NCBI GenBank assembly: GCA_038062875.1
Contig: JBBTWF010000001.1
Coordinates: 27,769-91,768 of the forward strand
Direction of reading: 5' to 3'
DNA: 64,000 nt
DNA from: Patescibacteria group bacterium
Lineage (GTDB): Bacteria > Patescibacteriota > Minisyncoccia > UBA6257 > UBA9933
The notes beneath the pieces are model-generated. The model worked only from the letters and a program-made list of their open reading frames with translations. It was not told the DNA's origin and made no database searches. The position numbers were made by a program, and so were the translations under genes. Of this stretch, positions 3,367-45,725 are shown in pieces. The stretch's first letter is position 1; the number at the start of each line of letters is the position of its first letter.

Positions 3367-3434
3367 GGGATAGAATATAGAATTTAGGGACTAAAAATCC
3401 TAAATCCTAAATCCTAAATCCTAAATCCTAAATT
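3367..3434. repeat. Intergenic element of opposed heptamer tandem repeats: (TAGAATA/TAGAATT)n on the left facing (CCTAAAT)x5 on the right, able to fold as a long imperfect hairpin
   Basis: Sequence agaatatagaatttagggactaaaaatcctaaatcctaaatcctaaatcctaaatcctaaat read directly; the left arm is approximately the reverse complement of the right arm. Confidence 0.8.
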
Positions 3435-3800
3435 ATGATACAAGAACGTTCAATATTAAAAGTGGCTGACAACAGCGGAGCTAAAATTGTCCGTTGTTTT
3501 AGAATTTTAGGCGCAACCAGGCGGAGATACGCCGGAATAGGTGATATTATTGTCGCTTCGGTAATTGTCGCCGAGCCGAGAAAAGCCGTTAAGAAAAAAG
3601 ACATAGTTAGAGTTGTAATTGTAAGACAATGTAAGTCATTTCGTCGCTCGGACGGTTCATATATTAAATTTGACGAGAACGCAGTTGTTTTGGTTGATAA
3701 AAAAGAGCCGAAAGCAACAAGAATTTTCGGTCCAGTGCCGAGAGAATTAAAAGAAAGGGGTTTTGAAAAAATAGTTACAATGGCGGAGGAAATAGTATAA
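3435..3800 (+). CDS. rplN: 50S ribosomal protein L14
   Basis: [17 protein letters not shown] start, 121 aa; first gene of the spc-like block. Confidence 0.95.
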
Positions 3801-3804
3801 AAAT

Positions 3805-4110
3805 ATGAAAATTCATAAAAACGACACAGTCCAAATAATTACCGGTAAAGATAGCGGCAAGACCGGAAAAGTTTTAAAAGTTTTTCCTAAAAGGGGATCA
3901 ATTTTAATTGATGGATTGAATATTTATAAAAAACATGCCAAACCAAAAAAACAAGGAGAAAAAGGTCAGATAGTTTTGGTTCCGAGGCCGATTAATGTTT
4001 CAAATATAATGATTGTTTGTTCGGCTTGTCATAAAAATACAAAAGTCGGCTATAAATTAGAAAATAAAAATAAAGTTAGGTATTGTAGAAAATGTTCCGC
4101 TAAAATTTAA
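3805..4110 (+). CDS. rplX: 50S ribosomal protein L24 (KOW domain) with a Cys4 zinc-ribbon-like C-terminus
   Basis: The N-terminal KOW motif (KNDTVQIITGKDSGKTGKVLKV) matches L24. The C-terminus reads CSACHKNTKVGYKLENKNKVRYCRKC. Confidence 0.85.
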   Translation: MKIHKNDTVQIITGKDSGKTGKVLKVFPKRGSILIDGLNIYKKHAKPKKQGEKGQIVLVPRPINVSNIMIVCSACHKNTKVGYKLENKNKVRYCRKCSAKI

Positions 4111-4117
4111 AAAATAA

Positions 4118-4166
4118 ATCCCGCACCTTTTGACGGAGTTTAATGCTTAATTAAAAGGTGCGGGAT
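4118..4166 (+). promoter_or_regulatory. 14-bp stem hairpin (atcccgcacctttt ... aaaaggtgcgggat, about 21-nt loop) immediately upstream of and overlapping the rplE translation start
   Basis: Inverted repeat read directly. In E. coli the S8 autoregulatory target on spc mRNA lies at the rplE start, so the position is suggestive. Confidence 0.4.
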
Positions 4167-4172: not shown

Positions 4173-4706
4173 ATGGAAAAAGAAATAATTAAAAAAATAA
4201 AACAAGAATTTGGTTACAAAAATGATTTAGCCGCGCCTCGGCTCAATAAAATTGTTGTCAATACTGGCGTCGGCCGGCTAAGCCAACAGCCAAATTTTGA
4301 AGAAAAGATTTTACCGGAAATTATCAAGGAATTGTCGTTAATTACCGGTCAAAAACCGTCAGCATCGGTTGCTAAAAAATCAATCGCCGGGTTTAAAACT
4401 AGAATCGGTCAGATTATCGGCCTTAAAACAACATTAAGACGCCGAAAAATGTACGATTTTTTAGAGAGATTAATTAAAATCACTTTGCCGCGAGTAAAGG
4501 ATTTTAGAGGAATTAATCTTAAAAATGTTGATAATGGAGGGAATTTAACCATCGGCTTGAAAGACCAATCGGCATTTTCGGAAATTAATCAGGAGCTATC
4601 AAAAGTTGACTTTGGCTTGGAAATAACTATCGTTAGTAATACCAAGAAAAGAGAAGAAGCGATAGGATTATATAGATTATTAGGAATACCGCTTAAGAGG
4701 GATTAG
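4173..4706 (+). CDS. rplE: 50S ribosomal protein L5
   Basis: MEKEIIKKIKQEFGYKNDLAAPRLNKIVVNTGVG, an L5 N-terminus; the ATG at 4173 is preferred over the upstream in-frame GTG at 4158, which lies inside the hairpin. Confidence 0.9.
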   Translation: MEKEIIKKIKQEFGYKNDLAAPRLNKIVVNTGVGRLSQQPNFEEKILPEIIKELSLITGQKPSASVAKKSIAGFKTRIGQIIGLKTTLRRRKMYDFLERLIKITLPRVKDFRGINLKNVDNGGNLTIGLKDQSAFSEINQELSKVDFGLEITIVSNTKKREEAIGLYRLLGIPLKRD

Positions 4707-4783
4707 AATATAGAATATAGGATTTAGGGATTAAAACCGCCCCTAAATTCTAAATCCTAAATACTAAATTCTTTAAAATTATC
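4707..4783. repeat. Intergenic opposed-heptamer hairpin element (tagaatatagaatataggatttaggg ... ccctaaattctaaatcctaaatactaaattc)
   Basis: Same architecture as 3367-3434; lies between rplE and rpsN. Confidence 0.8.
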
Positions 4784-5956: not shown

Positions 5957-6280
5957 ATGACCAAGAGAAAAACATTAAATCAAATAAGATCTCGCAGAAA
6001 AAAGAGGACGCGAGCTAAAATAAACGGCACTTCTGACAAGCCGCGCCTTTCGATTTTTCGAAGCAATCGGAGCATCCAAGTCCAATTGATTGACGACAAA
6101 GTTGGGAAAACATTAATAGCCGCTTCGACAAAAGAAGCTAAGAATTTAGGAGAATTAATTGGCAAGAAGGCGTCTGAAAAAGGGATTAAAAAAGCGGTTT
6201 TTGACAGGGGCGGATATAAATATCACGGTCGAATAAAAAAAGTCGTTGAAGAAGCGCGAAAAGCCGGATTACAAATATGA
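5957..6280 (+). CDS. rplR: 50S ribosomal protein L18
   Basis: 107 aa, KPRLSIFRSNRSIQVQLIDD...FDRGGYKYHGRIKKVVEEARKAGL, L18 motifs. Confidence 0.9.
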   Translation: MTKRKTLNQIRSRRKKRTRAKINGTSDKPRLSIFRSNRSIQVQLIDDKVGKTLIAASTKEAKNLGELIGKKASEKGIKKAVFDRGGYKYHGRIKKVVEEARKAGLQI

Positions 6281-7200: not shown

Positions 7201-8469
7201 ATGTCCAAAATCCTCCAAATCTTCAAAATCAAAGACCTTCGCAATAAAATTTTAATTGTCGCTTTTTTGTTGCTGTGTTTTAGGGCTTTATCGGTTGTTC
7301 CTATACCGGGAATTGACGTTTCTCGACTGCAGGAATTTTTTTCTTCAAATCAGCTTTTCGGTTTTCTTAATATTTTTTCCGGAGGCGCTTTAGGAAATTT
7401 ATCGATTGTGATGTTGGGAGTCGCTCCTTACATCACAGCTACCATTATAATGCAGCTTTTGACGATGATTTTTCCGAAATTTAAGGAAATGTATTACGAG
7501 GAAGGAGCGGCCGGTCGGGCGAAATTCAATCGTTATTCCCGTTATTTAACGGTTCCTTTGGCCGGACTTCAGGCGTACGGGTTTTTGAATTTATTAATAT
7601 CTCAAAATGTAATTCCTCATTTGGGGATTTTTGACACTTTAAGAAATGTTGTGATTATTTCCGCCGGTTCAATGATTTTGGTATGGCTTGGAGAATTAAT
7701 TAGCGAGCAGAAAATCGGCAACGGAATTTCGCTTATAATTTTTGCCGGTATTGTAAGCGCCTTACCGACAACAATAAGGCAAGCGTTTTTATCTTATGAG
7801 CCTTCAATTTTGCCGACTTACATTACTTTCGCGATAGTGGCGGTTTTTGTAATTGCCGGCGTGATTTTCATTAATGAGGGAGAAAGGAAAATACCCGTTG
7901 CTTACGCTAAACGTGTAAGAGGAATGAAAATGTACGGAGGCGTTTCCAGTTATCTTCCATTAAAAGTCAATCAGGCCGGCGTTATTCCGATTATTTTCGC
8001 CATTTCGATTTTGCTTTTTCCACAGTTTGCCGCGCAAATCAGCGCTGTGATTTCGCAGGATTTCGCTTTAAAATTCAACGAATTAGTCAACAGTGTTTTT
8101 AATAATCAATATTTTTATACCGTTATTTATTTCGTGTTGGTGATGGTTTTTACTTATTTTTACACGGCAGTCACTTTTGACCCGAAAGAGATTTCCAAGA
8201 ATCTCCAGCGGGCAGGCGGATTTATCGCCGGTATTCGGCCGGGTGAATCAACTTCGGTATTTTTATCGAAAATCATCAGTCGGATAACTTTATTCGGCGC
8301 CATCTTTTTGGGGCTCGTGGCTATTTTGCCTAACCTAACTAGAATGGTTACCGGAATCGCCGTGCTTACTATCGGCGGAACCGCGCTTTTAATTGTGGTT
8401 TCGGTTGCTTTAGAATCAATGAAGCAAATAAATTCTCAGTTGATAATGCGTGAATACGAAGAAATATAA
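7201..8469 (+). CDS. secY: Preprotein translocase subunit SecY
   Basis: 422 aa, 10 predicted TM segments, SecY signatures; canonical position after rplO. Confidence 0.95.
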   Translation: MSKILQIFKIKDLRNKILIVAFLLLCFRALSVVPIPGIDVSRLQEFFSSNQLFGFLNIFSGGALGNLSIVMLGVAPYITATIIMQLLTMIFPKFKEMYYEEGAAGRAKFNRYSRYLTVPLAGLQAYGFLNLLISQNVIPHLGIFDTLRNVVIISAGSMILVWLGELISEQKIGNGISLIIFAGIVSALPTTIRQAFLSYEPSILPTYITFAIVAVFVIAGVIFINEGERKIPVAYAKRVRGMKMYGGVSSYLPLKVNQAGVIPIIFAISILLFPQFAAQISAVISQDFALKFNELVNSVFNNQYFYTVIYFVLVMVFTYFYTAVTFDPKEISKNLQRAGGFIAGIRPGESTSVFLSKIISRITLFGAIFLGLVAILPNLTRMVTGIAVLTIGGTALLIVVSVALESMKQINSQLIMREYEEI

Positions 8470-8548
8470 ATTAAGAATATAGAATTTAGAATATAGAATT
8501 TAGGGGCTTAAAATCCTAAATCCTAAATCCTAAATCTTAAATCCTACA
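8470..8548. repeat. Intergenic opposed-heptamer hairpin element (aagaatatagaatttagaatatagaatttagggg ... (tcctaaa)n)
   Basis: Same family as the elements at 3367 and 4707; lies between secY and adk. Confidence 0.8.
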
Positions 8549-12526: not shown

Positions 12527-13783
12527 ATGTTAGACATCAATTTAATCCGTAGCAATCCAGAATTAGTCAAAAAAGGCGTTTCCGCCAAAAATATAAACCC
12601 TCAATTAGTGGACGAGTTTTTGGTCTTAGACAAAGAATGGAGGGAATTGACCGCCAAATTGGATAATTTGCGGGCAGAGCAGAATAAACTAAGCAGTGAA
12701 AGAAAAATTGACGAGGCAAAAGAAAATAAAATAAAAATTAAAGGGATAGAAGATAAATTAAATGAAACAGAAAAACGGCGCGAGGAAATTTTAATGAGTT
12801 TGCCGAATTTGCCGTTTGATGATGTGCCAGTTGGCAAAGACGAAAGTGGTAATGTAGTAATTCGCGAGGTTAATAAAAAACCCGATTTTGATTTTCAGCC
12901 AAAAAACTATTTAGAACTCGCCGAGAAGCTGGGCTTGATTGATATAGAGCGAGCATCTAAAGTTTCCGGCAGTCGGTTCGGTTATCTAAAAAATCAAGCC
13001 GCGCTTTTTGAATTCGCTTTGATAAAATTGGCGATGGATACGGCGGTTGCCGAAGGATTTACGCCGATTGTTCCGCCGGTAATGGTCAAAAGCAAAATGA
13101 TGAAAGCAATGGGATATATTGACCGCCGTGAAGATCAAGACGAAACATATTTTTTAAAAGAAGACGATTTATATTTAGTCGGGACATCCGAACAGTCAAT
13201 CGGCCCGATGCATAGCGATGAAATTTTTAACGAAAAAGAATTACCAAAAAGATATGTCGGATTTTCAACGTGCTTTCGGCGAGAAGCCGGTTCTTACGGA
13301 AAAGATACAAAAGGTATTTTAAGAGTTCATCAATTTGATAAAATCGAGATGTTTAGTTTTTGTGAGCCGGAAAAATCAAAAGAAGAGCACGGGTTGTTAT
13401 TGGGAATAGAAGAAAAATTAATGCAGGCGCTTGGATTGCCATATCGGGTTTTAAGTATTTGTACGGGCGATTTAGGGGGACCGGCAGCGGCAAAATACGA
13501 CATTGAAGTTTGGTTGCCGGGTGAAAATCGCTACCGCGAAACCCATTCCACTTCCAATTGCACCGACTTTCAGGCGCGCCGGTTGAATATAAAATATAAA
13601 CCTAAAACCCAAAACCTAAAACCTAAAACCGATTATGTTCATACTTTGAACGGCACCGCTTTCGCTATCGGCAGAACACTCATCGCTATTATTGAAAACT
13701 TTCAGCAAAAAGACGGCACAATTTTAGTGCCGGAAGTTTTACAAAAATATTTGGGATTTGAGAAAATTGGGCTGTCCAGTTGA
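12527..13783 (+). CDS. serS: Seryl-tRNA synthetase carrying an in-frame heptamer-repeat insertion (KPKTQNLKPKT)
   Basis: N-terminal coiled coil plus class II core (FRREAGSYGKDTKGILRVHQFDKIEMF); the insertion at 13601-13630 is (CCTAAAAC)-type repeats. Confidence 0.9.
   Translation: MLDINLIRSNPELVKKGVSAKNINPQLVDEFLVLDKEWRELTAKLDNLRAEQNKLSSERKIDEAKENKIKIKGIEDKLNETEKRREEILMSLPNLPFDDVPVGKDESGNVVIREVNKKPDFDFQPKNYLELAEKLGLIDIERASKVSGSRFGYLKNQAALFEFALIKLAMDTAVAEGFTPIVPPVMVKSKMMKAMGYIDRREDQDETYFLKEDDLYLVGTSEQSIGPMHSDEIFNEKELPKRYVGFSTCFRREAGSYGKDTKGILRVHQFDKIEMFSFCEPEKSKEEHGLLLGIEEKLMQALGLPYRVLSICTGDLGGPAAAKYDIEVWLPGENRYRETHSTSNCTDFQARRLNIKYKPKTQNLKPKTDYVHTLNGTAFAIGRTLIAIIENFQQKDGTILVPEVLQKYLGFEKIGLSS
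13601..13630. repeat. In-frame tandem repeat cctaaaacccaaaacctaaaacctaaaacc inside serS
   Basis: Same 7-8-mer repeat unit as the intergenic elements; it encodes a KPKTQNLKPKT loop. Confidence 0.85.
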
Positions 13784-15242: not shown

Positions 15243-17137
15243 TAAATAAATATAGACGTTCCAGCTTTTGCGTCCGGTTTATACGGGTCTTTCAGCGCTT
15301 TCAGCCATCGATATTCGTCTTCGGGATTTCGTAATTGTCCTTGATGAAGTTTACCTATGGCGCCTTGTAAATTATTAATAGAAATCGCTATCCAGTTGAT
15401 TCCTTCTTCTTTAGGGTTGCCTTTTGACGATTGCCAATATTCAACCTTATTTTCTCCTAAGTAATACTTTGAATTTCCGCCGCCGAAATAATCGATCGCG
15501 ATTTTGTCGTTATTAGAAAGATTTTTTTCAACGAATATTTTCAGTCGTTTCAAGTCCTGTCCCCAGTCATAATTTGAATCAACTACATATTTATAGCCGC
15601 TCTCAACTCCGCCGCCGAATTGATTAAAGTAAGAAAGATAATGAGGAGTTGCAAATAAAACTTCCGTTAAGTACCAGATTATTAAAACAGCGATAACAAC
15701 ACCTTTAAAAGAAGTTTTTATAAGATTAAAGATGGTTTTGGCGATTCGTTTCCATAATCTTTCATCATTAATCATTTTTCTGATTGTCCATTTTTTTAGG
15801 GCGCTGGCGGTCAGAATATAAATAAAAGGCATAGTAGGCAGAATATGGCGAATGCCGATATTTAACGGGCTTTTAATGCTGTAGAGCCAGTAGAAAATCA
15901 CAAAAGAAATCATTGAAAATTCGGCGAAATGGGTGCCAATGTAGTCGCTGAAAGTTTTTAGTTTATAGGTTTTAGGTTTTAGGTTTTTAATAATACTCCA
16001 AAGACCCAACAAAAATGCTAATCCGATTAAAATCATTGAAGGAATCGGTTCTTTTAAAATAAAAACCATCGGGAAATAATACCACCAGCCACTGGCCGAG
16101 ACCTCACCCAAGAAATAAGCGGTGTTGCCTCCGGACGAACGTTGCATAACCATTAAAACGCCGAGCATATATTCGGCTAACGGCCGAGTAAGTCGGTTTT
16201 CAGACATAATAATATTAATATCAGCTAAACATCGCAGTTTGTTGTGATTCAAGTCGCATATTTTATTGCTTGGAGCCGGACCGTCGGCAAAAGAAGTTAG
16301 GATTGTTTTAGTGTCGGAAACCTGTTTTTCAACTGGATAGTTAAAAGTGAATAGAAAATAAACCGCGTAGACCAAAGCGTAACCGATTATAAAAATAGAA
16401 ATTAATTGACCTGCGCATTTAAGAAAGTGGAGCAAAATTTTTCTCCATTCAAGATTGATTTTCCAAATTAAGAAAATGATTATTAGAAAAATAAAGAACG
16501 GGATTAAAAGAACGGCGGAAAATTTTATCAATTGGGCGATACCGAAAGCCAAACCAGCCCAAATTAGATGTTTTCGCGACGGAGAAAAAAGAAATTTAAC
16601 GAAATAATAAATAGCCAGAAATATTCCCAAAGCCGCGCCGATATCTGTGGTCACATAATGGCCGTGCGCTAAAACAGCGGGGGAAAATGAAAAGAGAAAA
16701 GTCGGCAATAATGCCCACCAGCGGCCGATTAATTCCCGCGCCCAGATATAAATAAAAATAACCAAGAGCAGAGTTAAAAGCATTGGGCCAAGTCGCGCCC
16801 AACCAACTATTTTATCAGCGTCATTTCCGGATTCATAAAGGAATTGGGCGCCGGCTACCCATTGGCCGTTAACATCGGTTCGCCAAGACGATTTATCAGT
16901 TGGGAAATTTAGGTTTTGAAATAATAAGGGTAAAGCGGACAGGGCTTTAACTAAGGGCGGATGTTCGGGATTAAGTCGATAATCAAGATAGCGGGCATAG
17001 CCGTAGCCAGATGGAATATGCGCCAATTCATCCATAGTGGCTGATTCTTTAAGAGAGGCGTTGAGCATCAAACCAAAACAGGACAGAACCATCAGCGCTA
17101 CCAAGCCCCATTGAATCCAGGAAAGTGTCTTAGTCAT
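15233..17137 (-). CDS. Polyprenol-phosphate-dependent glycosyltransferase of the GT39/GT83 (PMT/ArnT) family, multi-pass membrane, with an in-frame repeat insertion
   Basis: N-terminal DELAH...YxxxP motif (MDELAHIPSGYGYARYLDYRLNPEHPPLVKAL), more than 10 TM segments; 15965-15988 on the minus strand is the heptamer repeat (NLKPKTYKLKT). Confidence 0.7.
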   Translation of the reverse strand: MTKTLSWIQWGLVALMVLSCFGLMLNASLKESATMDELAHIPSGYGYARYLDYRLNPEHPPLVKALSALPLLFQNLNFPTDKSSWRTDVNGQWVAGAQFLYESGNDADKIVGWARLGPMLLTLLLVIFIYIWARELIGRWWALLPTFLFSFSPAVLAHGHYVTTDIGAALGIFLAIYYFVKFLFSPSRKHLIWAGLAFGIAQLIKFSAVLLIPFFIFLIIIFLIWKINLEWRKILLHFLKCAGQLISIFIIGYALVYAVYFLFTFNYPVEKQVSDTKTILTSFADGPAPSNKICDLNHNKLRCLADINIIMSENRLTRPLAEYMLGVLMVMQRSSGGNTAYFLGEVSASGWWYYFPMVFILKEPIPSMILIGLAFLLGLWSIIKNLKPKTYKLKTFSDYIGTHFAEFSMISFVIFYWLYSIKSPLNIGIRHILPTMPFIYILTASALKKWTIRKMINDERLWKRIAKTIFNLIKTSFKGVVIAVLIIWYLTEVLFATPHYLSYFNQFGGGVESGYKYVVDSNYDWGQDLKRLKIFVEKNLSNNDKIAIDYFGGGNSKYYLGENKVEYWQSSKGNPKEEGINWIAISINNLQGAIGKLHQGQLRNPEDEYRWLKALKDPYKPDAKAGTSIFIYHL

Positions 17138-19733: not shown

Positions 19734-20033
19734 ATGGAAAAACTTAGTAAAAAAACTTTAGAATATTTGGCTGGATTAGCGAGGATTGAATTAGATAAAA
19801 AGGGCGAGGATAAGTTATTAAGGGATTTACAAAAAATCTTCGATTATTTTGAGGAACTTAAAGAAGTTAATACGGAGAATGTTGAATCGATGACTGGCGG
19901 TAATATTTTTTCGGAAAATGTTTTTCGCGAAGATATTCAAAACTTAAAGCTAAAAGCTAAAAACTCAAAGCTAATTGAGGTGTTCCCGGAAGAAAAAGAC
20001 GGATTTTTGAAAGTGCCGCCTGTTTTTGAATAA
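19734..20033 (+). CDS. gatC: Asp/Glu-tRNA amidotransferase subunit C, with a repeat-derived LKLKAKNSKL segment
   Basis: 99 aa; LAGLARIELDKKGEDKLLRDLQKIFDYFEEL is a GatC signature; tandem repeat at 19940-19975. Confidence 0.8.
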   Translation: MEKLSKKTLEYLAGLARIELDKKGEDKLLRDLQKIFDYFEELKEVNTENVESMTGGNIFSENVFREDIQNLKLKAKNSKLIEVFPEEKDGFLKVPPVFE

Positions 20034-33129: not shown

Positions 33130-33203
33130 TTTTAAATAGTTTTTAGTTGTTAGTTTTTGGCTTTTAGTTTATTATAATTCAATAAAGATATATTTAAAAG
33201 AGT

Positions 33204-34502
33204 ATGAACAGTTATATTATTAACGGAGGGAGAAAATTAAAAGGAGAGGTGATTATTAATCCGTCAAAGAATTCGGCAACCGCTATTTTGATTGCTTCGT
33301 TGTTAAACAAGAAAAAAACGACTATTGCCAATCTTCCTAAAATAGAAGAGGTTTTTAGAATAATTGAGGTTTTGGAAAGTATTGGCGTTAAAACAAAATG
33401 GAAAGGGAAAGCGCTTGAGATAACCCCTTCCGCAAAATTTACTCTTAATAAAATAAATATAAAAGCCGCCATTAGAACACGAAGTATAATTTTATTTATA
33501 GGCGCTTTAGTTCATAAATTTGGTTCTTTTGGTTTGCCAATGTCTGGAGGATGCAAACTTGGAGTAAGAACGATAATGCCCCATATTTACGCTCTGGAAA
33601 ATTTTGGAATTAAAATAAAGATGCTTTGCGATAAATTAAACGTAAGCCATAAAAAACTTCGTCCTGCGGGAGAAATTATAATGTATGAATCCGGAGACAC
33701 CGCGACTGAAAACGCCATTCTTGCCGCTTCGCTGATACCAGGAAAGACCGTTATAAAATTCGCCTCGTCAAATTATCAGGTTCAAGATTTATGTTATTTT
33801 TTAAGTAAATTGGGAGCGCGCATTGACGGAATTGGTTCAACAACTTTAACTATCTTAGGAAAAAGAAAATTATCCAAGGACATTAAATATTATTTGACCG
33901 AAGACCCGATTGAATCAATGCTTTTTCTTGCGGCGGCAGTTGTTACTAAATCGTCAATTATTATAAAAAGATGTCCCATTGAGTTTTTAGAGATAGAGCT
34001 TTTGAAGTTGAAAAAAATGGGATTTAGGTATAAGCTCTTAAGAAGTTATAAGGCAAGAAACGGATATGGAAAATTAGTGGATATTAGGACTTTTCCTTCA
34101 AATTTAACAGCCCCGGTTGAGAAGCTTTACGGAAGGCCGTTTCCAGGATTAAACATAGACAATCTTCCTTTTTTTGTTCCGATTTCCACGCAAGCCAAAG
34201 GGGAAACGCTGATTCACGATTGGGTTTACGAGAATAGGGCGATTTATTACGCTGAATTGAATCGGCTTGGAGCCAATGTGCGGCTTGCCGACCCGCACCG
34301 TATTTTTATAACTGGACCGACAAAACTGGAAGGAGCGGAAATTATGTGTCCGCCGGCGCTTCGGCCTTCGGCGATTATTTTAGTGGCGATGCTGGCGGCA
34401 AAAGGAAAATCGATTCTTAGAAACACTTATGCGATTGAGAGAGGATACGAAGATTTAGTTGGAAGATTGAAGAAATTAGAAGCAGATATAAAGAGAATAT
34501 AG
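33204..34502 (+). CDS. murA: UDP-N-acetylglucosamine 1-carboxyvinyltransferase
   Basis: EPT fold; active-site Cys in LPMSGGCKLG; a cell-wall gene neighbourhood. Confidence 0.85.
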   Translation: MNSYIINGGRKLKGEVIINPSKNSATAILIASLLNKKKTTIANLPKIEEVFRIIEVLESIGVKTKWKGKALEITPSAKFTLNKINIKAAIRTRSIILFIGALVHKFGSFGLPMSGGCKLGVRTIMPHIYALENFGIKIKMLCDKLNVSHKKLRPAGEIIMYESGDTATENAILAASLIPGKTVIKFASSNYQVQDLCYFLSKLGARIDGIGSTTLTILGKRKLSKDIKYYLTEDPIESMLFLAAAVVTKSSIIIKRCPIEFLEIELLKLKKMGFRYKLLRSYKARNGYGKLVDIRTFPSNLTAPVEKLYGRPFPGLNIDNLPFFVPISTQAKGETLIHDWVYENRAIYYAELNRLGANVRLADPHRIFITGPTKLEGAEIMCPPALRPSAIILVAMLAAKGKSILRNTYAIERGYEDLVGRLKKLEADIKRI

Positions 34503-34568
34503 AATTTAGAATATAGAATTTAGGGAACGAAAATCCTAAATCCTAAATCCTAAATCCTAAATCCTAAA
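34503..34568. repeat. Intergenic opposed-heptamer hairpin element (tagaatttagaatatagaatttaggg ... (tcctaaa)x5)
   Basis: Same family as 3367 and 4707; between murA and mreB-1. Confidence 0.8.
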
Positions 34569-35576
34569 ATGTTTACTCGCAAAATAGGCATTGACCTTGG
34601 AACTGCTAATACGGTTGTTTTTGTGCCGGGACGCGGCTTTGTTATTAATGAACCGACCATAGTCGCTTTAAATGTACCGGACAACACTGTTTTGGCGGTA
34701 GGCAAAGAAGCTAAGGAAATGATTGGCCGAACACCTGAGGACATCGCTCCTTATCAGCCGTTGAAAGACGGGGTGATCGCGGATTATTACATAACAAAGG
34801 CAATGTTGAAATATTTTATAACTAAAGCAACCGGTCAATTTAATTTTTTCAAGCCCGAGGTGGTGATTTCAGTGCCGGCCGGCATTACTCAAACAGAGCG
34901 TAGGGCTGTGGATAACGCGGCTCGGGAAGCCGGAGCCAGAAAAACGTATGTTGTCAGAGAACCGATTTTAGCAGCTTTAGGCGCGGGCATTTCTATTAAT
35001 TCCCATTCCGGAAATATGATTATAAATATCGGCGGAGGAACATCTGAAACAGCCGTAATTTCTTTAGGTGGGATTGTTTCATGGGAGAGTTTGAGAATCG
35101 CCGGCAATAAATTCGACCAGGCGATTATTGATTATATTAAAAAGAAATATTCGCTTTCAATCGGCGAACAAACCGCGGAATTGATAAAAATAGAAATCGG
35201 TTCCGCTTTACCAACAAGAGCAAAATTAAGTTTTCAGGTGCGAGGAAGAGATTCGGTCTCCGGTTTGCCGAAAGATATAGTGATTAATTCTAATGAAATT
35301 GCCGAGGCGCTTAATCGTCATTTGATGGATATCGCCGCTTCAGTCCAGAATGTCTTTAATGTGACGCCGCCGGAATTGGTGTCGGACGTAATGGCTAAGG
35401 GAATCATAATTTCCGGAGGCGGAGCCCAATTACGCCACATTGACGAATTTTTCAAAAGGATATTGGGCGTGCCCGCTTATATAGCCGAAGATTCGCTTTT
35501 TTGCGTTGCCAAAGGAACGGGATTGATTTTAGACCATTTGGAGGTTTATAAGAGGACGTTATTGAATAAACGCTAA
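34569..35576 (+). CDS. mreB: Rod-shape protein MreB paralog (copy 1, stand-alone)
   Basis: Actin-fold motifs IGIDLGTANTVVFV, GGGTSE, IISGGGAQL. Confidence 0.85.
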   Translation: MFTRKIGIDLGTANTVVFVPGRGFVINEPTIVALNVPDNTVLAVGKEAKEMIGRTPEDIAPYQPLKDGVIADYYITKAMLKYFITKATGQFNFFKPEVVISVPAGITQTERRAVDNAAREAGARKTYVVREPILAALGAGISINSHSGNMIINIGGGTSETAVISLGGIVSWESLRIAGNKFDQAIIDYIKKKYSLSIGEQTAELIKIEIGSALPTRAKLSFQVRGRDSVSGLPKDIVINSNEIAEALNRHLMDIAASVQNVFNVTPPELVSDVMAKGIIISGGGAQLRHIDEFFKRILGVPAYIAEDSLFCVAKGTGLILDHLEVYKRTLLNKR

Positions 35577-35677
35577 ATAGAATTTAGAATATAGGATTTA
35601 GAATTTAGGGAACTTTTAAAAATCGAATTTAATTCTTCCCCAAATTCTATATTCTAAATTCTAACCCCTTATTATTT
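35577..35677. repeat. Intergenic opposed-heptamer hairpin element with a longer loop
   Basis: atagaatttagaatataggatttagaatttaggg ... ccccaaattctatattctaaattctaacccc. Confidence 0.75.
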
Positions 35678-39210: not shown

Positions 39211-39214
39211 ATTC

Positions 39215-39356: not shown

Positions 39357-39430
39357 GTAGAATACAAACAACACTTGAGATTTTTATACATTATTCAGAA
39401 CAGGCAGGCAGAGCAAAATAGATAAAGACA

Positions 39431-40207: not shown

Positions 40208-40318
40208 GTAAATTTAGTAAATTTTCAGAGAGGCCTGCGCGAGTTTTCCGCATTGCCTCTCTTTTTATTTGTTTTTTTATGTTTTGACTTAAAAATGTTT
40301 TTTGATTAAGATAAAGAT

Positions 40319-41551
40319 ATGCGTCAATCAACTCTTTTTACTAAAACTCGTAGAGAAGCGCCGAAAGACGAAGAAGCAGTCAACGCCAAACTGCTTATTC
40401 GAGCTGGTTTTGTTGATAAACTAATGGCAGGGGTCTATACTTTTTTGCCTTTGGGTTTTCGAGTGCTTAAAAAAATTGAGAATATTGTAAGAGAGGAAAT
40501 TAACAAAGCGGACGGAGTGGAAATTCTGATGCCAACGCTTCAGCCAAAAGAAAATTGGCAGAAAACTGGACGCTGGGACACGATGGACGATTTATACAAA
40601 GTTAAAGATAAAAGCGAAAAAGAATTCGCTTTGGGTCCTACGCACGAAGAAGTTATTTTTCCTTTATTAAAAAAATATATTTTTTCTTACAAAGACCTGC
40701 CGCTTTATATTTATCAAATACAGAATAAATTCAGAATGGAATTAAGAGCGAAATCCGGACTTTTGCGCGGAAGAGAATTTTTAATGAAAGACCTTTATTC
40801 GTTTCATACCAATGAAGAAGACAGAGATAAGTATTACGATAAAATCATAGAGGTCTATAAAACAATTTTTGACAAAGTCGGCATAGGCGAAAAAACATAT
40901 TTTACGCTCGCGCCGGGAGGGACTTTTTCCAGACATTCCCATGAATTTCAGACGATTACGGAAGCCGGCGAAGACATAATCCATATCTGCGAGGCCTGTA
41001 AGATTGCAATTAATGACGAAATAATAAAAGAACAAAAATCTTGTCCGAAATGCGGAAAAAATAAATTTCAAAAAGAAAAATCCGTTGAGACGGGGAATAT
41101 TTTTAAATTAAAAGATAAATTCGCGGAGGATTTTGATTTAAAATTCAGAGACAAAGACGGATCGGAAAAATTTGTTTCAACTGGATGCTACGGGTTAGGA
41201 TTCGGACGTTTGATTGGAGTTGTCGTAGAAGTAAATCATGATGATAAAGGAATAATCTGGCCGGAATCAATCGCGCCGTTTCAAGTTCATTTGTTAGATA
41301 TAAGAGGAAAGGGGCAAGAGGAAAGAGGAAAGAAAATTTACGAAACTTTACAGAAAAATGGAGTTGAAGTATTGTATGATGACAGAAATGATGCCAGCGC
41401 GGGCGAAAAATTCGCTGACGCGGATTTAATCGGTATTCCGTACAGAGCCGTAATCAGCGAAAAAACCGGGGATAAAATTGAAATAAAAAAGAGGAGCGGT
41501 AAAGAAATTAAATTAGTTAGCGAGAAAGAGTTAATTAAATCTCTGATATGA
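40319..41551 (+). CDS. proS: Prolyl-tRNA synthetase, short form without the editing insertion, with an inserted Cys4 zinc ribbon
   Basis: Class II motifs (FRMELRAKSGLLRGREFLMKD, GCYGLGFGRLIGVV); C-terminal anticodon-binding domain; ribbon CEACK...CPKCGKN. Confidence 0.85.
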   Translation: MRQSTLFTKTRREAPKDEEAVNAKLLIRAGFVDKLMAGVYTFLPLGFRVLKKIENIVREEINKADGVEILMPTLQPKENWQKTGRWDTMDDLYKVKDKSEKEFALGPTHEEVIFPLLKKYIFSYKDLPLYIYQIQNKFRMELRAKSGLLRGREFLMKDLYSFHTNEEDRDKYYDKIIEVYKTIFDKVGIGEKTYFTLAPGGTFSRHSHEFQTITEAGEDIIHICEACKIAINDEIIKEQKSCPKCGKNKFQKEKSVETGNIFKLKDKFAEDFDLKFRDKDGSEKFVSTGCYGLGFGRLIGVVVEVNHDDKGIIWPESIAPFQVHLLDIRGKGQEERGKKIYETLQKNGVEVLYDDRNDASAGEKFADADLIGIPYRAVISEKTGDKIEIKKRSGKEIKLVSEKELIKSLI

Positions 41552-42591
41552 AGATTTTTAATTATTTTACAAAAGACATAGGAATTGATTTAGGTACGGC
41601 CAATTCATTGGTTTATCTTAAAGGCGAGGGGATAATCGTTAATGAGCCGTCAATCGCCGCGGTTAATAATAAAACCGGACAGGTTTTGGCAATCGGCGAG
41701 GAAGCTAAAAAAATGTTGGGCCGGACTCCCAGCCACATTACAGTAATCAGACCATTGATTAACGGCGTAATTTCAGATTTTGATATGACCCACGAGATGC
41801 TCAGGCATTTTTTCAAAAAAATCAACAATAATCCGATTCTGAATTATCACCGCGCAGTTATTGGAATTCCGACCAATTTAACCGAAGTGGAAAGAAAATC
41901 CGTTGAAGACGCGGTGGTAATGGCCGGAGCAGCTAAGGCCTATTTAATTGAAGAGCCGGTTGCCGCGGCTCTTGGCGCGCGATTGCCGATTAACGAGCCG
42001 ACAGCCAATATGATTATTGATATCGGTGGTGGCACTACTGATATCGCCATTATTTCAATGGGGGGAACGGTTACAGCTAAGAGTTTAAAAATTGCCGGTG
42101 ATAAATTTAATGACGATATTATTAAATTTATTCGCGATGAGTTTAAATTAGCAATTGGCGAGCCCACTGCCGAAGAATTAAAAGTCGCTATCGGTTCAGC
42201 GGTTCCAATTGATGAAAAGTTGGAATTGGCAATTCGCGGTCGCGATATGGCAACAGGTCTTCCTCGTGAAGTAGTGGTTAAAGGCGGTCAAATAAGAGCG
42301 TCAATCAGCCGTTCTTTGCGTTCAATTATTGAGGCCGTTAAAGAGACAATTGAAATCGCGCCTCCGGAATTAGTAGGTGATATTTTAAAACGGGGCATTT
42401 TTCTCTGTGGCGGAGGCAGCTTATTAAAAGGAATCGACCAGTTGATTGAGAAAGAAATTTCCGTTTCTGCGATTATTGTTGATGACCCGTTAACCTGCGT
42501 AGTTAGAGGAACCGGCATTGCCGCTGAAAATATTACCGAATATCAGCATGTTTTTGCCATCGCGTTGAAGCCGATGGATATAAACATTTAA
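41548..42591 (+). CDS. mreB: Rod-shape protein MreB (copy 2, in the mreBCD-mrdA cluster)
   Basis: IGIDLGTANSLVYL, IDIGGGTTD, GIFLCGGGSLL. Confidence 0.9.
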   Translation: MKIFNYFTKDIGIDLGTANSLVYLKGEGIIVNEPSIAAVNNKTGQVLAIGEEAKKMLGRTPSHITVIRPLINGVISDFDMTHEMLRHFFKKINNNPILNYHRAVIGIPTNLTEVERKSVEDAVVMAGAAKAYLIEEPVAAALGARLPINEPTANMIIDIGGGTTDIAIISMGGTVTAKSLKIAGDKFNDDIIKFIRDEFKLAIGEPTAEELKVAIGSAVPIDEKLELAIRGRDMATGLPREVVVKGGQIRASISRSLRSIIEAVKETIEIAPPELVGDILKRGIFLCGGGSLLKGIDQLIEKEISVSAIIVDDPLTCVVRGTGIAAENITEYQHVFAIALKPMDINI

Positions 42592-42626
42592 TTTTCAATT
42601 TCTAATTTTTAATTTTTAATAACCAG

Positions 42627-43310
42627 ATGAAAAAAGGTATTTTAATCGGTTTAATTATTGTTTTGACTTTCATTGTTTTTTTCACGGATTTTTTTATACC
42701 AAAAAATTTTTTAGACAAGCCGATTAATTTACTTCGGTCTTTTCTCTCTCAAAGCGACGTTTATAAAGAAAATTTATTTCTTAAACAGGAGATCGAGGAT
42801 TTACGGGCGCAGATGCAATTAATAAATATAAGAGGAAATGGAGAAGAGGAAAGAGGAAAGTTAATCACCAAAATTTTTTCCGCTTATCCTTTTAATATTA
42901 AAAATACTTTAACTTTAAATGTGGGAACAAAACAGGGGATTAAAAAAGGAATGACGGCGACTTTCGGTGAAAATATTTTACTCGGACAAATCATAGATGT
43001 TTTTGAAGATAAAAGCGTTATACGGACAATTTTTGACCCCAAGTGGCAGTTGTCGGTCAGAATCGGCCAATCCGAAATTGACGGGCTTTTAATTGGCGGA
43101 ATTGAACCGAAAATCACTCTTTTGGAAAAAGATAAACCATTGCAAGTCGGCGACGTTGTTTATTCAGCGAGTTCAGATCTTCCTTACGGTTTGAAAATCG
43201 GCGAAATCGCGGGAATTAAACAATCCAGCGGAGATGTTTTCAAGGAAGCCCGTTTAAAAACATCTTATAATATTAATGATCTAAAGGAGGCGTATGTTTT
43301 AATTTTCTAA
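42627..43310 (+). CDS. mreC: Rod-shape protein MreC
   Basis: N-terminal TM, coiled coil, beta domain; position after mreB. Confidence 0.7.
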   Translation: MKKGILIGLIIVLTFIVFFTDFFIPKNFLDKPINLLRSFLSQSDVYKENLFLKQEIEDLRAQMQLINIRGNGEEERGKLITKIFSAYPFNIKNTLTLNVGTKQGIKKGMTATFGENILLGQIIDVFEDKSVIRTIFDPKWQLSVRIGQSEIDGLLIGGIEPKITLLEKDKPLQVGDVVYSASSDLPYGLKIGEIAGIKQSSGDVFKEARLKTSYNINDLKEAYVLIF

Positions 43311-43753
43311 TGTTTAAAAAAAAATTAATTCTTTTTTTTATTATTATTTGTTTCAGTTTTCTCCAGACGGTTGATTTTTCTATTTTCGGCGTTAAACCCA
43401 ATTTGGCTTTAGTAGCGGTTATTGCCGCTGCTTTTTTTATTTCGGATATTTGGGAAGGCGTATTATTGGCGGTTATAGCGGCTTTAATTTTGAAATTCAG
43501 TCCGGGGTTTAGCAAAGAAATTTTAATCTTTTTTTTAATCGTTGCCGCGGCGATTATCGCGAAAAAGTATCTTCCTTGGCGTTCAATGATTAATTTAATT
43601 TTTTTAATTATTTCCGCTACTTTACTTTTTTATGTTTTTTCGTTTCCGACATCGATTATCTCCGGTATTTTTATTCAGGAACTAATTTATAATATATTGA
43701 TTGGAATTTTTATATTTATTGTTTTTTCTTTCTGCGTTAAGCGCTATATATGA
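43310..43753 (+). CDS. mreD: Rod-shape protein MreD-like (polytopic membrane)
   Basis: 147 aa, about 5 TM segments; position between mreC and mrdA. Confidence 0.5.
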   Translation: MFKKKLILFFIIICFSFLQTVDFSIFGVKPNLALVAVIAAAFFISDIWEGVLLAVIAALILKFSPGFSKEILIFFLIVAAAIIAKKYLPWRSMINLIFLIISATLLFYVFSFPTSIISGIFIQELIYNILIGIFIFIVFSFCVKRYI

Positions 43754-45657
43754 GAAAAAAACCTGAATTTTTATTAGAAGAAGCCGTGCTTGACGATTTA
43801 GCGCAAGATTTCGATGTTATGGAATTGCCGCTTTCCAAGCGCGCTTTTAAGTTACTAGGTTTATCCGTTATCATAGTCATAGTCATCGTCATAGTCAGAG
43901 TTTTATATTTAGGAATTTGGCAGGGAAATTTTTACAAAACTATAGCTCAGATTAACGCCAATCAAATCATTGTTTTGCGAGCCGAACGAGGAATAATTTT
44001 TGATCGATTTAATAAGCCAATGGTTGAAAACTTGCCGAGTTTTCAATTAGATTTAATTCTCGCTGAATTGTTAAAAAATCCGCAAGAACGCGAGCAAACG
44101 CTGGAAGCCATTGCCAAAACCGTCGGTTTGTCTCCGTCTTATGTGGAGAATCTTATTAAAGATATTGATTTGGAAAAACAAAATTCTTTAATCTTAGCCA
44201 AAAATCTTACAATTGAACAGGTTATTCAATTAAAAAGTTTAAATTTTAAAGCCCTCAGAATCGAAGAAAATTTTGAGCGCCAATATTCCGATTCAAAAAC
44301 CAACGCGCATATTCTTGGTTATACCGGAATTGCCAATAAAGAAGATTTATCGGGAAATTCCGAATTTTTACTTAACGATATCGTCGGAAAATCCGGCTTG
44401 GAAAGTTATTATGACAAAGAATTGCGCGGTCAAGACGGCCAAAGAGCGAATTTTCGCAATGCCAAAGGAGAAATTATTGATGAAAAACTTTTGACCGAGC
44501 CGGTGGCCGGAGACAATCTTTATTTAACTATTGACAGTGAGTTTCAGTCCTATTTTTACCAGCGTTTAAAACAAGGGTTAAATAGTTTGGGACGTCAGTC
44601 CGGCGTTGGAATCGCCATTAATCTCCAAAACGGAGAGGTCTTAGCGCTGGTTAGTCTGCCAAGTTTTGACGCCAATCAAAATTTAAGCGATTTTTTTTCT
44701 GACCCTAATAAACCGTTTTTTAATCGAGCCATCAGCGGGGCTTACGCTCCAGGCTCAACCATTAAACCGCTAGTTGCTTTGGCGGCTTTAAAAGAAAATA
44801 TCATCACTCCGACTCAAGAAATTTTTTCCCGCGGCTATTTGGAAATTCCCAATCCTTATCATCCGGAACAACCGAGTCGTTTTCTTGATTGGAAACCGAA
44901 TGGTTGGGTGAATTTATATTCGGCTTTAGCGCGTTCTTGCAATATTTATTTTTACGCGCTTGGCGGCGGTTTGCCGTCTTCGGTCAGCGGTATAATGCGA
45001 GGCGGCTCTGATAATATAAAAGGATTAGGCATAGAGAAATTAAAAGAATATTGGGGAAAATTCGGTTTAGGAGAAACAACGGGCATTGATTTGCCCGGAG
45101 AAAATAATGGATTTTTACCCGACCCGAAAGAAAAAGAACAGCGAACCGGCGAGCCGTGGCGACTGGGCGACACTTATAACGTAAGCATCGGTCAAGGCGA
45201 CCTTTTAATCACTCCAATTCAGTTGATTAATTACATCGCGGCTATTGCTAATGGCGGAAAGATTTTCCAGCCGTTTATCGTAAAAAAAATTATTTCTGAA
45301 GATGGACATGTAATTAAAGAAAGACAGCCGAAAATTCTCAAAGATTATTCTGAATTTGATAATTATATTAAAGAAGTCCAAAAAGGAATGGTTGATGTTG
45401 TGGAAAAATCCTACGGCACCGCTTATCTTTTAAATGATTTACCGGTAATGGTAGCGGCGAAGACAGGCACGGCTCAGATTGAAGGCAATGAGAAAATAAA
45501 CGCTTTTTTCGTCGGTTACGCGCCTACTGACAATCCTCAATTAGTAGTTTTAGTCCTTGTTGAAAACGCCCGAGAAGGCAGTTTAAACGCCGTGCCAATA
45601 GCCAAAGACGTATTTAATTGGTATTATTACAATAGACTAAAGATAGGTGTTAGGTGA
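43750..45657 (+). CDS. mrdA: Penicillin-binding protein 2 (peptidoglycan D,D-transpeptidase)
   Basis: SxxK (STIKP), SxN (SCN) and KTG (KTGTAQ) transpeptidase motifs; N-terminal TM and dimerisation domain. Confidence 0.85.
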   Translation: MRKKPEFLLEEAVLDDLAQDFDVMELPLSKRAFKLLGLSVIIVIVIVIVRVLYLGIWQGNFYKTIAQINANQIIVLRAERGIIFDRFNKPMVENLPSFQLDLILAELLKNPQEREQTLEAIAKTVGLSPSYVENLIKDIDLEKQNSLILAKNLTIEQVIQLKSLNFKALRIEENFERQYSDSKTNAHILGYTGIANKEDLSGNSEFLLNDIVGKSGLESYYDKELRGQDGQRANFRNAKGEIIDEKLLTEPVAGDNLYLTIDSEFQSYFYQRLKQGLNSLGRQSGVGIAINLQNGEVLALVSLPSFDANQNLSDFFSDPNKPFFNRAISGAYAPGSTIKPLVALAALKENIITPTQEIFSRGYLEIPNPYHPEQPSRFLDWKPNGWVNLYSALARSCNIYFYALGGGLPSSVSGIMRGGSDNIKGLGIEKLKEYWGKFGLGETTGIDLPGENNGFLPDPKEKEQRTGEPWRLGDTYNVSIGQGDLLITPIQLINYIAAIANGGKIFQPFIVKKIISEDGHVIKERQPKILKDYSEFDNYIKEVQKGMVDVVEKSYGTAYLLNDLPVMVAAKTGTAQIEGNEKINAFFVGYAPTDNPQLVVLVLVENAREGSLNAVPIAKDVFNWYYYNRLKIGVR

Positions 45658-45725
45658 TAGGTTTTAGGTGTTAGATATTTTTAAGTTTTTTATCCTAAAA
45701 CCCAAAACCTAAAACCCAAAACCTA
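45640..45725. repeat. Opposed 8-mer repeat hairpin element (GGTGTTAGGTGATAGGTTTTAGGTGTTAG ... CCTAAAACCCAAAACCTAAAACCCAAAACCTAA) overlapping the 3' end of mrdA
   Basis: A variant of the heptamer family; the left arm encodes the last residues of PBP2. Confidence 0.75.

Follow-up and report, generated by a model that had tools for sequence, protein, structure and literature searches.

Bacteria of the Candidate Phyla Radiation (CPR) are usually described as extremely streamlined, with genomes of ~1 Mb. A 64-kb stretch of one such genome from groundwater (Patescibacteria group bacterium, GenBank assembly GCA_038062875.1, contig JBBTWF010000001.1, positions 27,769 to 91,768; hereafter the window) raises the question of what repeat elements are doing in the spacers of its ribosomal-protein and cell-envelope operons, where about one spacer per few kb holds one. 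An initial annotation had described six of these spacers, each with two opposed arrays of tandem heptamers, and had read them as long hairpins at operon boundaries. We find that they belong to a clade-specific dispersed class of convergent heptamer arrays, which are gained, lost and replaced at stop-start junctions and whose families are common to different genomes and sites.

The closest relatives of the window, retrieved through SecY, are metagenome-assembled genomes of Candidatus Wolfebacteria/Paceibacterota, also in the CPR, with a best SecY identity of 88%. Their loci, at most 21 kb each, are designated here by L-numbers. Coding sequence makes up 93.4% of the window, 72 of the 79 genes lie on the plus strand, and the GC skew is positive throughout.

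Architecture of the spacer elements

The genes flanking all six spacers were verified as previously named: S17-L14, L5-S14, SecY-Adk, MurA-MreB, MreB-HolB and PBP2-GalT-like (Table 1). Their repeat units occur far above chance. With at most one mismatch allowed, TAGAATATAGAAT has 16 matches in the window against 0.15 expected, and CCTAAATCCTAAAT has 17 against 0.10. In our own scan of the window, 20 arrays of at least three units had period 7 and none had period 5 or any period from 8 to 12; Tandem Repeats Finder likewise lists many period-7 arrays there, with lengths of 3-5.6 units.

The arrangement (TAGAATW)n-loop-(CCTAAAT)n is found in four of the six elements (S17-L14, L5-S14, SecY-Adk and MurA-MreB); their left arm, (TAGAATA/TAGAATT)n, has TTTAGGG at its end and is separated by a loop of 6-11 nt from the (CCTAAAT)n of the right arm. 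The MreB-HolB element shares this left arm and has a right arm of (AAATTCT/ATATTCT)n, which makes it a near-perfect palindrome around a 27-nt loop region, and the PBP2-GalT-like element is made of other units, TAGGTGT/TAGGTGA and AAAACCT/AAAACCC (AAAACCY). The single architecture proposed for the six spacers is thus right in that arrays are present in all of them, but the proposed units apply to four only. In general each arm of an element has 3-6 units, and the loop between the two arms varies from 7 to 30 nt. The class is also wider than six spacers, with 12 more period-7 arrays inside open reading frames (ORFs) of the window and single arrays in two other spacers.

The arms were said to be mutual reverse complements, which is not the case: they are ~75-80% complementary. 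In the four TAGAATW/CCTAAAT elements AGAATTT stands opposite AAATCCT, a pairing that leaves one A·C mismatch per heptamer on the plus (mRNA) strand and G·U on the minus strand. An inverted relationship between neighbouring arrays is nevertheless the rule, since 16 of 25 neighbouring pairs in the window and loci L001-L080 are inverted and one is direct. Across all loci the complementarity of an arm to its own partner has a median of 0.81 and is at least 0.75 in 52 of 69 pairs, against 7 of 69 pairs with a direct similarity of at least 0.75. A repeated, hairpin-symmetric class at intercistronic junctions is therefore borne out. The lengths of partner arms, looked at as a sign of selection for a hairpin, are weakly correlated (r = 0.15).

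Between co-directional genes, the upstream stop codon is at -25 to +19 nt relative to the left edge of the element and the downstream start codon 0 to +19 nt past its right edge. The right arm is G-free and A/U-rich, and both arms carry stop codons in all three frames.

We folded the six elements and compared them with shuffled sequences. In order of position, the minimum free energies of the plus-strand RNA are -18.0, -22.3, -14.2, -15.3, -28.5 and -24.7 kcal/mol, with z scores relative to shuffles of -1.35, -2.93, -1.17, -2.15, -5.37 and -3.82; the z scores of the minus-strand RNA are -2.93, -2.08, -4.34, -6.02, -5.16 and -5.73. With DNA parameters, the plus strands of the four elements of family A1 show no folding advantage over shuffles (z -0.2 to -1.5), and a cruciform or hairpin on that DNA strand was rejected for these four of the six. 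The description of the elements as folding into long hairpins holds in the sense direction for MreB-HolB and PBP2-GalT-like, but is too strong for the transcribed strand of the other four (RNA z -1.2 to -2.9), where folding is marginal because of the one A·C mismatch per heptamer. The MreB-HolB element (A2) is the sole A-type copy that folds strongly, with RNA z scores of -5.4 (plus) and -5.2 (minus) and a DNA z score of -5.4.

Distribution over orthologous junctions

Enrichment of period 7 is confined to the closer relatives (L003, L004, L009, L010, L012, L018, L023, L044, L047 and others), in which the units are genome-specific; most of the more distant loci have no period-7 arrays. At three orthologous junctions the spacer is at most 30 nt long in 51 of 63, 57 of 65 and 34 of 59 of the relatives' loci, mostly as a tiny spacer or a gene overlap. 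A patchy subset of relatives has opposed arrays of other heptamers at the orthologous junctions, again reaching from stop to start (Table 1). A codon-resolution comparison of filled with empty junctions shows that the flanking protein termini are unaltered, SecY for example ending in ...QLVMREYEEI* throughout, and that the ancestral spacer of 0-5 nt has been replaced exactly by the element. The stop codon is sometimes supplied by the element itself, as in L010, where S17 extends two codons into its array.

Three families are met repeatedly in different genomes: A (TAGAATW/CCTAAAT), B (TTTTAGG/CTAACAC) and C (AGAATGT-AGAATTA/AATTCTA). Family A has five copies in the window; the sixth element is family B in reverse orientation, and the forward form, (TTTTAGG)n/(CTAACAC)n, is found in L003, L004, L023 and L104. 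A metagenome scan for family A returned 23 stretches. Most come from groundwater (Hainich and JGI sets), and several are redundant, being near-identical contigs. Wherever its flanks can be identified, family A keeps one orientation, with the left arm after the upstream stop and the right arm running into the downstream start. Its sites include positions upstream of tuf and rpsM, the S8-L6, L3-L4, NusB-RNase III, RF2-FtsE, FtsE-FtsX and PilC-pilin junctions, and the window's own sites in relatives: L5-S14 in L041, S17-L14 in L104, SecY-Adk in L004/L090 and MurA-MreB in L101.

At the last three of these sites the arms are ~90-100% identical to those of the window (~97-100% at S17-L14), compared with 49-63% identity at flanking third-codon positions. 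The loops vary in sequence and length, and the number of units differs by 1-2 at most between these orthologous copies, whose proteins are ~80% identical. The identity of the family is independent of relatedness. The closest loci, L010 and L001 (mean ~76%, up to 16 proteins), carry other families or an empty site, and family A is common to the window, to a Hainich H51 genome (L004 = L090 = L104 contig, ~69-75%) and to L023 and L041 (65-68%).

Easy expansion and contraction, which had been expected from the heptamer construction, is not what we observe. Between contig pairs of 99.7-100% identity no unit-number differences were found and the only indels fall outside the arrays, although these are consensus assemblies, which hide slippage variants; the arrays are therefore not hypervariable simple sequence repeats (SSRs). 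The suggestion of dispersed repeats akin to transposable elements of the miniature inverted-repeat type (MITEs) or repetitive extragenic palindromic (REP) sequences fares better, and is plausible in view of the patchy presence at orthologous junctions and the recurrence of families at different junctions and in different genomes.

Two observations on individual loci may be added. Long imperfect hairpins are substrates of RNase III, and rnc is autoregulated through a leader hairpin in Escherichia coli; the family-A element in the NusB-RNase III spacer, directly upstream of the rnc start (L084 ~7429-7470, minus strand; L092 5549-5626), is notable for that reason. An exact lookup of the MreB protein gave short Logan unitigs only; one of them (L081 1030-1200, compared with window 35569-35740) diverges right after the left arm of the MreB-HolB element into unrelated, GC-richer sequence, either as an assembly chimera at the repeat or as a strain rearrangement at the element, and two others (L082, L083) end within the arrays.

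In-frame arrays inside genes

Twelve of 24 arrays in the window lie inside ORFs and in frame; two of the three arrays in GatA fall below the threshold of the scan (Table 1). They are made of the same unit families as the intergenic arrays and have imperfections and flanking bases in common with other copies. The Pgk array and the right arm of the MreB-HolB element share 78% identity, TCCCC prefix included, and the AAGAGGA region of MreC is 77% identical over 62 nt to 41288-41349 in the aminoacyl-tRNA synthetase (aaRS) gene, with the second unit imperfect in both. Because 7 is coprime to 3, a unit that contains TAA meets every frame within three units, and in the SerRS and GatA arrays a single C variant (AAACCCA) stands exactly where TAA would be in frame 0, so that an in-frame stop is avoided.

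Compared with solved homologs, the arrays occupy variable segments and mostly substitute for existing sequence, with length changes of +8 and +1 aa in LigA and of -4, +3/4 and 0 aa in GatA. Such equal-length substitutions fit neither simple transposition nor simple slippage. Orthologous loops of relatives carry other arrays. In SerRS these are (AAACCTA), (AAATCTT) or (CCCTCAA-CCCTAAC), and in the same loop of the glycosyltransferase (AAAACCT), (AAATGTC)5, (AAAAGCT)4 or GTTTCAG-type arrays, while the loops of more distant SerRS and glycosyltransferase orthologs are shorter and non-repetitive. The 7-nt periodicity thus persists across orthologs while the encoded peptide differs. Unit families that occur in the window as single in-frame arms in variable loops of housekeeping proteins have a counterpart in relatives as whole hairpins. 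In a MurC-type ligase (L055 7878-7947 and L072 6891-6975) a complete opposed-heptamer hairpin lies in frame, in the loop between WRRME(F/Y)RG and DDYAHHP, and its units differ between the two relatives, being (AGTATCA)/(AATACTC) and (GAATTAC)/(ATAATTC), respectively. In-frame heptamer segments measure 20-85 nt.

Origin and function of the elements

How did these elements come to lie at the junctions, and do they act there? We give roughly an even chance to the reading that they are dispersed repeats of the kind of REP sequences, MITEs and the short tandemly repeated repetitive (STRR) sequences, copied as units and with a function that is at most modulatory. The elements would be copied between sites as units, and slippage would act only slowly, fine-tuning the number of units. 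They would persist where they are harmless: the stops in all frames of both arms would end upstream translation, and the right arm would do as a normal leader in a genome with little use of Shine-Dalgarno (SD) sequences. An SD-like motif at -17 to -6 is present in just 9 of the 79 genes of the window, and start codons normally follow A/U-rich, G-poor sequence, so that a G-free right arm is an ordinary-looking leader. Sequestration of an SD sequence, which we also considered, was dropped on the same count. The imperfect stem would draw stop and start together, and translational coupling could thereby be kept. The elements would be transcribed together with their operons and would at most modulate mRNA stability, processing or coupling, as do REP, enterobacterial repetitive intergenic consensus (ERIC) and Correia elements.

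Several results weigh against this reading. The genes of the 64-kb window are housekeeping genes only, with no transposase, mobilising gene or dedicated binding gene among them; no target-site duplication is visible at filled as compared with empty junctions, although a duplication of 2 nt (TA) could escape notice in the AT-rich context; and no copies of families A and B were found in viral contigs. The sense hairpin that the coupling idea needs is thermodynamically marginal in family A1. The in-ORF arrays, being mostly similar-length loop replacements and not clean insertions, are awkward for simple transposition. Finally, the conserved arm positions include the non-pairing A·C sites, which points to a sequence-specific constraint and not to mere tolerance.

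This last point favours another explanation, unlikely on balance but deserving a hearing, in which the arms would be binding arrays for a conserved trans-acting factor and the elements a sequence-specific regulatory module, with a regulon over ribosomal-protein, tuf, pilin, mreB and rnc genes. The candidates for such a factor would be a protein binding ~7 nt per unit (a cold-shock domain or S1-like protein), RNase III or a small RNA, and the hairpin would then be secondary or a switch. It would account for arms conserved far beyond third-codon positions next to variable loops, for the strict orientation that family A keeps towards genes wherever its flanks can be identified, for a right arm that always adjoins the start codon, and for the copies directly upstream of rnc. 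The same idea was put forward for TAACTGA repeats by MacGregor (PMC4679880). It has difficulty with the many unrelated unit families, which differ even at one junction across genomes and leave no class-wide recognition sequence. The same units stand in frame inside ORFs, where leader binding makes no sense, the downstream genes have no common function, and no candidate factor was found among the genes of the window.

We think it quite unlikely that the arrays are instead a mutational by-product without function, in which a quirk of replication or repair in this clade would favour 7-nt slippage, arrays would arise in situ and be duplicated locally in inverted form, and no copying between loci would occur. 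Period 7 is indeed specifically enriched, in one clade only, and the excess of heptamer SSRs in some bacteria has been discussed together with polymerase slippage (Mrazek 2007, as cited in PMC4679880 and PMC4692102). Different units in the same orthologous spacer or loop across genomes, units that sometimes include the local stop and last codons (L047, L009, L010), and in-ORF arrays that overwrite loops with no consistent gain in length would also be expected of such a process. However, identical families with the same imperfections are found at many unrelated loci in genomes with 65-75% protein identity, unit number shows no polymorphism between nearly identical contigs, the arms are far more conserved than neutral sites, and slippage alone does not make inverted arms.

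A small probability remains for a dedicated trans-acting system that writes and maintains the heptamer families, either an enzyme that adds repeats from a template or converts patches, or a binding protein with sequence specificity that selects for them. If this were true, the writer would overwrite permissive DNA genome-wide, in stop-start spacers and protein loops alike, at unchanged length. It would explain why different families occupy the same sites across genomes and one family many sites per genome, why arms and mismatches are conserved beyond neutral expectation, and why essential enzymes have loops with a 7-aa period in which the peptide is irrelevant. For the CPR it would amount to a new kind of mechanism, regulatory or sequence-homogenising, that acts genome-wide.

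The terminators or attenuators of the initial annotation, hairpins that would stop or pause RNA polymerase at operon boundaries such as S10-spc and spc-adk, are very unlikely. The elements do have hairpin symmetry, and some copies lie at classical operon boundaries (S17-L14, after secY, and before rpsM, tuf and mreB), but they are not confined to them, and family A is also found at the internal junctions L3-L4, S8-L6 and L5-S14. The elements have no T-run, and between the right arm and the following start codon there are 0-19 nt, as in CCTAAATT-ATG and CCTAAA-ATG. Their stems are AT-rich with a mismatch every 7 nt, sense-strand folding is marginal, the ancestral state was a translationally coupled spacer of 0-5 nt, and a consensus scan gives no terminator-like call on any element. 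Genuine terminators, GC-rich hairpins with a T-run, are present elsewhere in the window (25036-25080, 40227-40275 and 39655-39680), as are canonical sigma-70 promoters (one, near 39687, is TTGACA-17-TATTAT) and -10 boxes of the extended type. Ordinary signals are therefore in use in this organism, and the heptamer elements look like neither kind. We place hardly any weight on an internal promoter, with TAGAAT of the left arm as a -10 box that retains T1, A2 and T6 of TATAAT, a start in the loop and (CCUAAAU)n as an unstructured 5' untranslated region, since, for all the weak promoter-like matches at 8471-8514 and the several downstream genes that are typical first genes of operons, the elements have no -35 element, promoter-like matches (69 in total) are close to the number in shuffles (54.8 ± 7.4), the real promoters of the window are of the canonical TTGACA-17-TATAAT types, families TAACGAC, TTTTAGG and TAGCCAC have no -10-like unit, and copies lie at operon-internal junctions.

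Comparison with known repeats

The closest precedent is the convergent heptamer pairs of Xanthomonas, in which the GGGAATC repeat forms 70-75 convergent pairs per genome, near or overlapping stop codons and with positions conserved between species (Rehm et al. 2015, PMC4692102); the same study covers the GGGGA(T/C)T repeats of Nostoc. As in the window, these are tandem heptamers, often in two convergent arrays with stem-loop potential, that lie in intergenic regions 0-50 bp from ORFs. Some of the Xanthomonas repeats overlap the stop codon and they are usually transcribed; related species agree in position and in type (single or paired), with differences in length. However, each genome of Xanthomonas, a high-GC gamma-proteobacterium, has a single G-rich unit that could form G-quadruplexes, whereas several A/T-rich, G-poor families per genome occur here, filling the entire stop-to-start spacer of co-directional genes. 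The units TAGAATW, CCTAAAT, TTTTAGG, CTAACAC and others have no four-fold runs of at least three G, and thus no G-quadruplex potential. The systematic arm mismatches, the units in frame in essential genes and the compact CPR genome are further differences.

Heptanucleotide long SSRs and the cyanobacterial STRR sequences (Mrazek et al. 2007 and Mazel et al. 1990, as cited in PMC4679880 and PMC4692102) are, as far as the citing papers describe them, also over-represented at period 7 in some lineages only and mostly intergenic. By the same accounts they are mainly single direct arrays, unlike the opposed pairs found here, with common families, in-frame coding copies and no strain-level length variation. 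The TAACTGA repeats of marine Beggiatoaceae and cyanobacteria form 169 direct sets and one indirect set, with no hairpin predicted (MacGregor 2015, PMC4679880). They too are patchily distributed in the phylogeny and hold stop codons in their units, so that every frame is stopped within three units. They overlap upstream stops, their ends lie a few nt ahead of SD-less starts, including those of ribosomal-protein operons, and a few of them lie in ORFs in readable orientation. They consist of one unit in direct arrays, in contrast to the paired inverted arrays of many unit families in the window and its relatives.

The REP sequences with their bacterial interspersed mosaic elements (BIMEs), ERIC and Correia elements have their known effects on mRNA stability and on processing by RNase III or RNase E, not on classical termination (review PMC10969869). 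Like these and MITEs, the elements described here are short, multi-copy and hairpin-symmetric, lie between co-transcribed genes and have a patchy distribution, with families across related species. REP, ERIC and Correia elements are palindromes of unique sequence with defined ends, however, and the arms here are tandem heptamers of variable unit number. Elements that are palindromic, intercistronic and multi-copy recall REP sequences and the doublets formed by them (REPINs), yet their arms consist of tandem units and they occur inside ORFs as well. The likeness to MITEs extends to inverted arms and dispersed non-coding copies (family A, five in 64 kb and 23 metagenome stretches), but MITEs have target-site duplications and partner transposases, neither of which was seen at the junctions or in the 64-kb window, respectively.

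Rickettsia palindromic elements (RPEs), also covered in PMC10969869, are palindromic repeats tolerated in frame in unrelated housekeeping genes of a small genome. Their counterparts here are the single arms in SerRS, LigA, GatA, Pgk, TpiA and others and the whole hairpins in the MurC-type protein (L055, L072). RPEs are insertions of ~100-150 bp with a conserved peptide, whereas the segments here have 20-85 nt, are mostly replacements of similar length and do not conserve the peptide. A resemblance to telomeric repeats (CCCTAAA in L047, CCTAAAA/CCTAAAT in the window) was considered a compositional coincidence, because the other families (TAACGAC, TAGCCAC, AAATGTC, AAGAGGA, CTCAATT) are unrelated to them.

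The elements differ from these known systems in their multiple A/T-rich families, exact stop-to-start placement, systematic mismatches, in-frame copies that keep periodicity and not peptide, and occurrence in a compact CPR genome. Literature searches combining CPR with heptamer, REP or MITE repeats found no report in the library that was covered. If confirmed genome-wide, they would add a repeat class to the biology of the CPR and would provide a natural system for asking why some bacteria favour heptamers among long SSRs. They would also be a case in which repeats at the DNA level shape protein loops independently of the encoded peptide, with essential enzymes (SerRS, LigA, GatA, Pgk, TpiA and a MurC-type ligase) holding the same 7-nt repeats in frame. 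The conserved mismatched arms hint at a sequence-specific process or factor. For annotators and assemblers there is a warning in the Logan unitigs, which break at heptamer arrays.

Coordinates and other features of the window

Table 1. Heptamer elements, single arrays and RNA genes of the window, and junction arrays of relatives
Feature	Position	Strand	Details
S17-L14 element, family A1	3358..3434	+	left arm AGAATTTAG-GGGA-TAGAATA-TAGAATT-TAGGGA, containing S17 stop TAG 3364-3366; right arm (AAATCCT)5.6, ends 1 nt before L14 ATG at 3435
L5-S14 element, family A	4700..4783	+	first TAG of the left arm doubles as the L5 stop (4704-4706); right arm a mix of CCTAAAT, TCTAAAT and ACTAAAT units; S14 ATG at 4784
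SecY-Adk element, family A1	8467..8548	+	left arm (AAGAATA TAGAATT TAGAATA TAGAATT TAGGGG), right arm (AAATCCT)5; spans from stop TAA 8467-8469 to TTG start at 8549
MurA-MreB element, family A1	34490..34568	+	left arm holds last three MurA codons and stop (AAG AGA ATA TAG, to 34502); right arm (AAATCCT)5.4, adjoins MreB ATG at 34569
MreB-HolB element, family A2	35574..35677	+	left arm (TAGAATT TAGAATA TAGGATT TAGAATT TAGGGAA); right arm (CCAAATTCT ATATTCT AAATTCT AA), near-perfect complement; small stem inside the 27-nt loop region
PBP2-GalT-like element, family B reversed	45642..45725	+	left arm (TAGGTGT TAGGTGA TAGGTTT TAGGTGT TAG), encodes last PBP2 residues and stop TGA 45655-45657; right arm (CCTAAAA CCCAAAA)n adjoins ATG 45726
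Single period-7 array, divergent spacer 33130-33203	33137..33170		TAGTTTT/TAGTTGT/TAGCTGT type
Single period-7 array, MreB2-MreC spacer	42587..42620	+	TTTAATT/TTCTAAT, fills the spacer
SerRS loop array	13598..13630	+	AAACCTA AAACCCA AAACCTA AAACCTA AAACC, encodes KPKTQNLKPKT
PMT-family glycosyltransferase array	15953..15987	-	(AAAACCT)n, KNLKPKTYKLKT
LigA array 1	17932..17965	+	(AACCCAA)4.6, ITQNPKPKTQNL; ~+8 aa vs E. coli LigA
LigA array 2	18109..18143	+	AAAACTA/AAAACCA, LKLKTKNLKTKK; near-equal-length loop swap, +1 aa vs 2owo
GatC array	19935..19974	+	AAAGCTA/AAAACTT
GatA array 1	22777..22812	+	33-nt string identical to SerRS array, IKPKTQNLKPKTS; region 4 aa shorter than Aquifex GatA
GatA array 2	23035..23067	+	QPKTYNLKPKTL
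GatA array 3, short	23382..23396	+	VNLKPK; equal-length substitution vs 3h0l
Class-II aaRS (ProRS type) array	41302..41333	+	(AAGAGGA)n, IRGKGQEERGKK
MreC array	42830..42860	+	(AAGAGGA)n, IRGNGEEERGKL
GalT-like protein array	45908..45939	+	(AACTAAA)n
TpiA array	50685..50718	+	perfect (CTCAATT)4.3, encodes LNSQFSILNSK
Pgk array	61387..61421	+	family-A right-arm units, TCCCC-AAATTCT AAATCCT ATATTCT AAATTCT
Array in ORF 62320-62799	62437..62463	+	purine-rich AAAGAGA/AAAGAGG, KEESEKRKEG; ORF without Pfam annotation
L003 junction arrays			(TTTTAGG)n/(CTAACAC)n
L047 junction arrays			TAGGGxA/(CCCTAAA)5
L009 junction arrays			(TAACGAC)n/(TCGTAAG)n and (AAATCGC)n
L010 junction arrays			TAGCCAC-type and (AATTTCT)4
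L004, L041 junction arrays			units identical to those of the window
tRNA-Gly(CCC)	60256-60326	+	Rfam 15; unrelated to heptamer elements
RNase P RNA, bacterial class A	62804-63162	-	Rfam 15, 112.5 bits; unrelated to heptamer elements

A scan of the whole window against Rfam 15 at the gathering threshold assigned no family to any of the six elements, and the RNase P RNA and the tRNA-Gly were its sole matches.

The window holds further repeats. A second dispersed family has four copies of ~49 nt (5152-5200, 6712-6760, 19447-19495 and 53875-53923) with the structure AAACTAAAAACT-TCCGCCnnnnGGCGGA-TCCGCCnnnnGGCGGA. All are in frame, in S8, S5 (at the C-terminus), LigA (in the linker before the BRCT domain, with no length change compared with E. 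coli) and MurB, and they encode SA(E/R)GGSA(K/F)GG. The copies in S8, S5 and LigA are flagged as terminator-like on the minus strand, with a mini-hairpin followed by a T-rich tail, so the family could be antisense terminators or in-frame palindromes like RPEs. Mini-palindromes of the form TCCGCC-N3-5-GGCGGA are also common in relatives.

At 39211-39394 an AT-rich spacer contains a GC-rich, structured, MITE-like insert of 184 nt (-68 kcal/mol) with inverted ends of ~20 nt (GAGCAATTCATCAAGAAAAC...GTTTTCTTGATGAATTGC), and similar GC-rich inserts of 183-344 nt fill the SecY-Adk or S17-L14 spacers of L002, L017, L023 and L034. An 18-nt repeat, GCGCTCTAAC(c/g)nnTTAGAGCGC, is found at 20087-20127, 20143-20160 and 22015-22032 and folds into nested hairpins in the spacer of 160 nt that precedes the ORF at 20194; both this ORF and gatA have an identical small hairpin, GGTGCAGTTGACTGCACC, upstream of them. 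A 36-nt tandem repeat at 24836-25004, with 2.3-2.7 copies and 75-80% matches, lies just upstream of the strong bidirectional terminator at 25036-25080 and overlaps ORFs on both strands.

Among the genes, two MreB paralogs are present, at 34569 and 41548. The gene for S5 (6277-6762) is followed directly by that for L15 (6776), with no L30 gene between them, and the absence of L30 is a known trait of the CPR.

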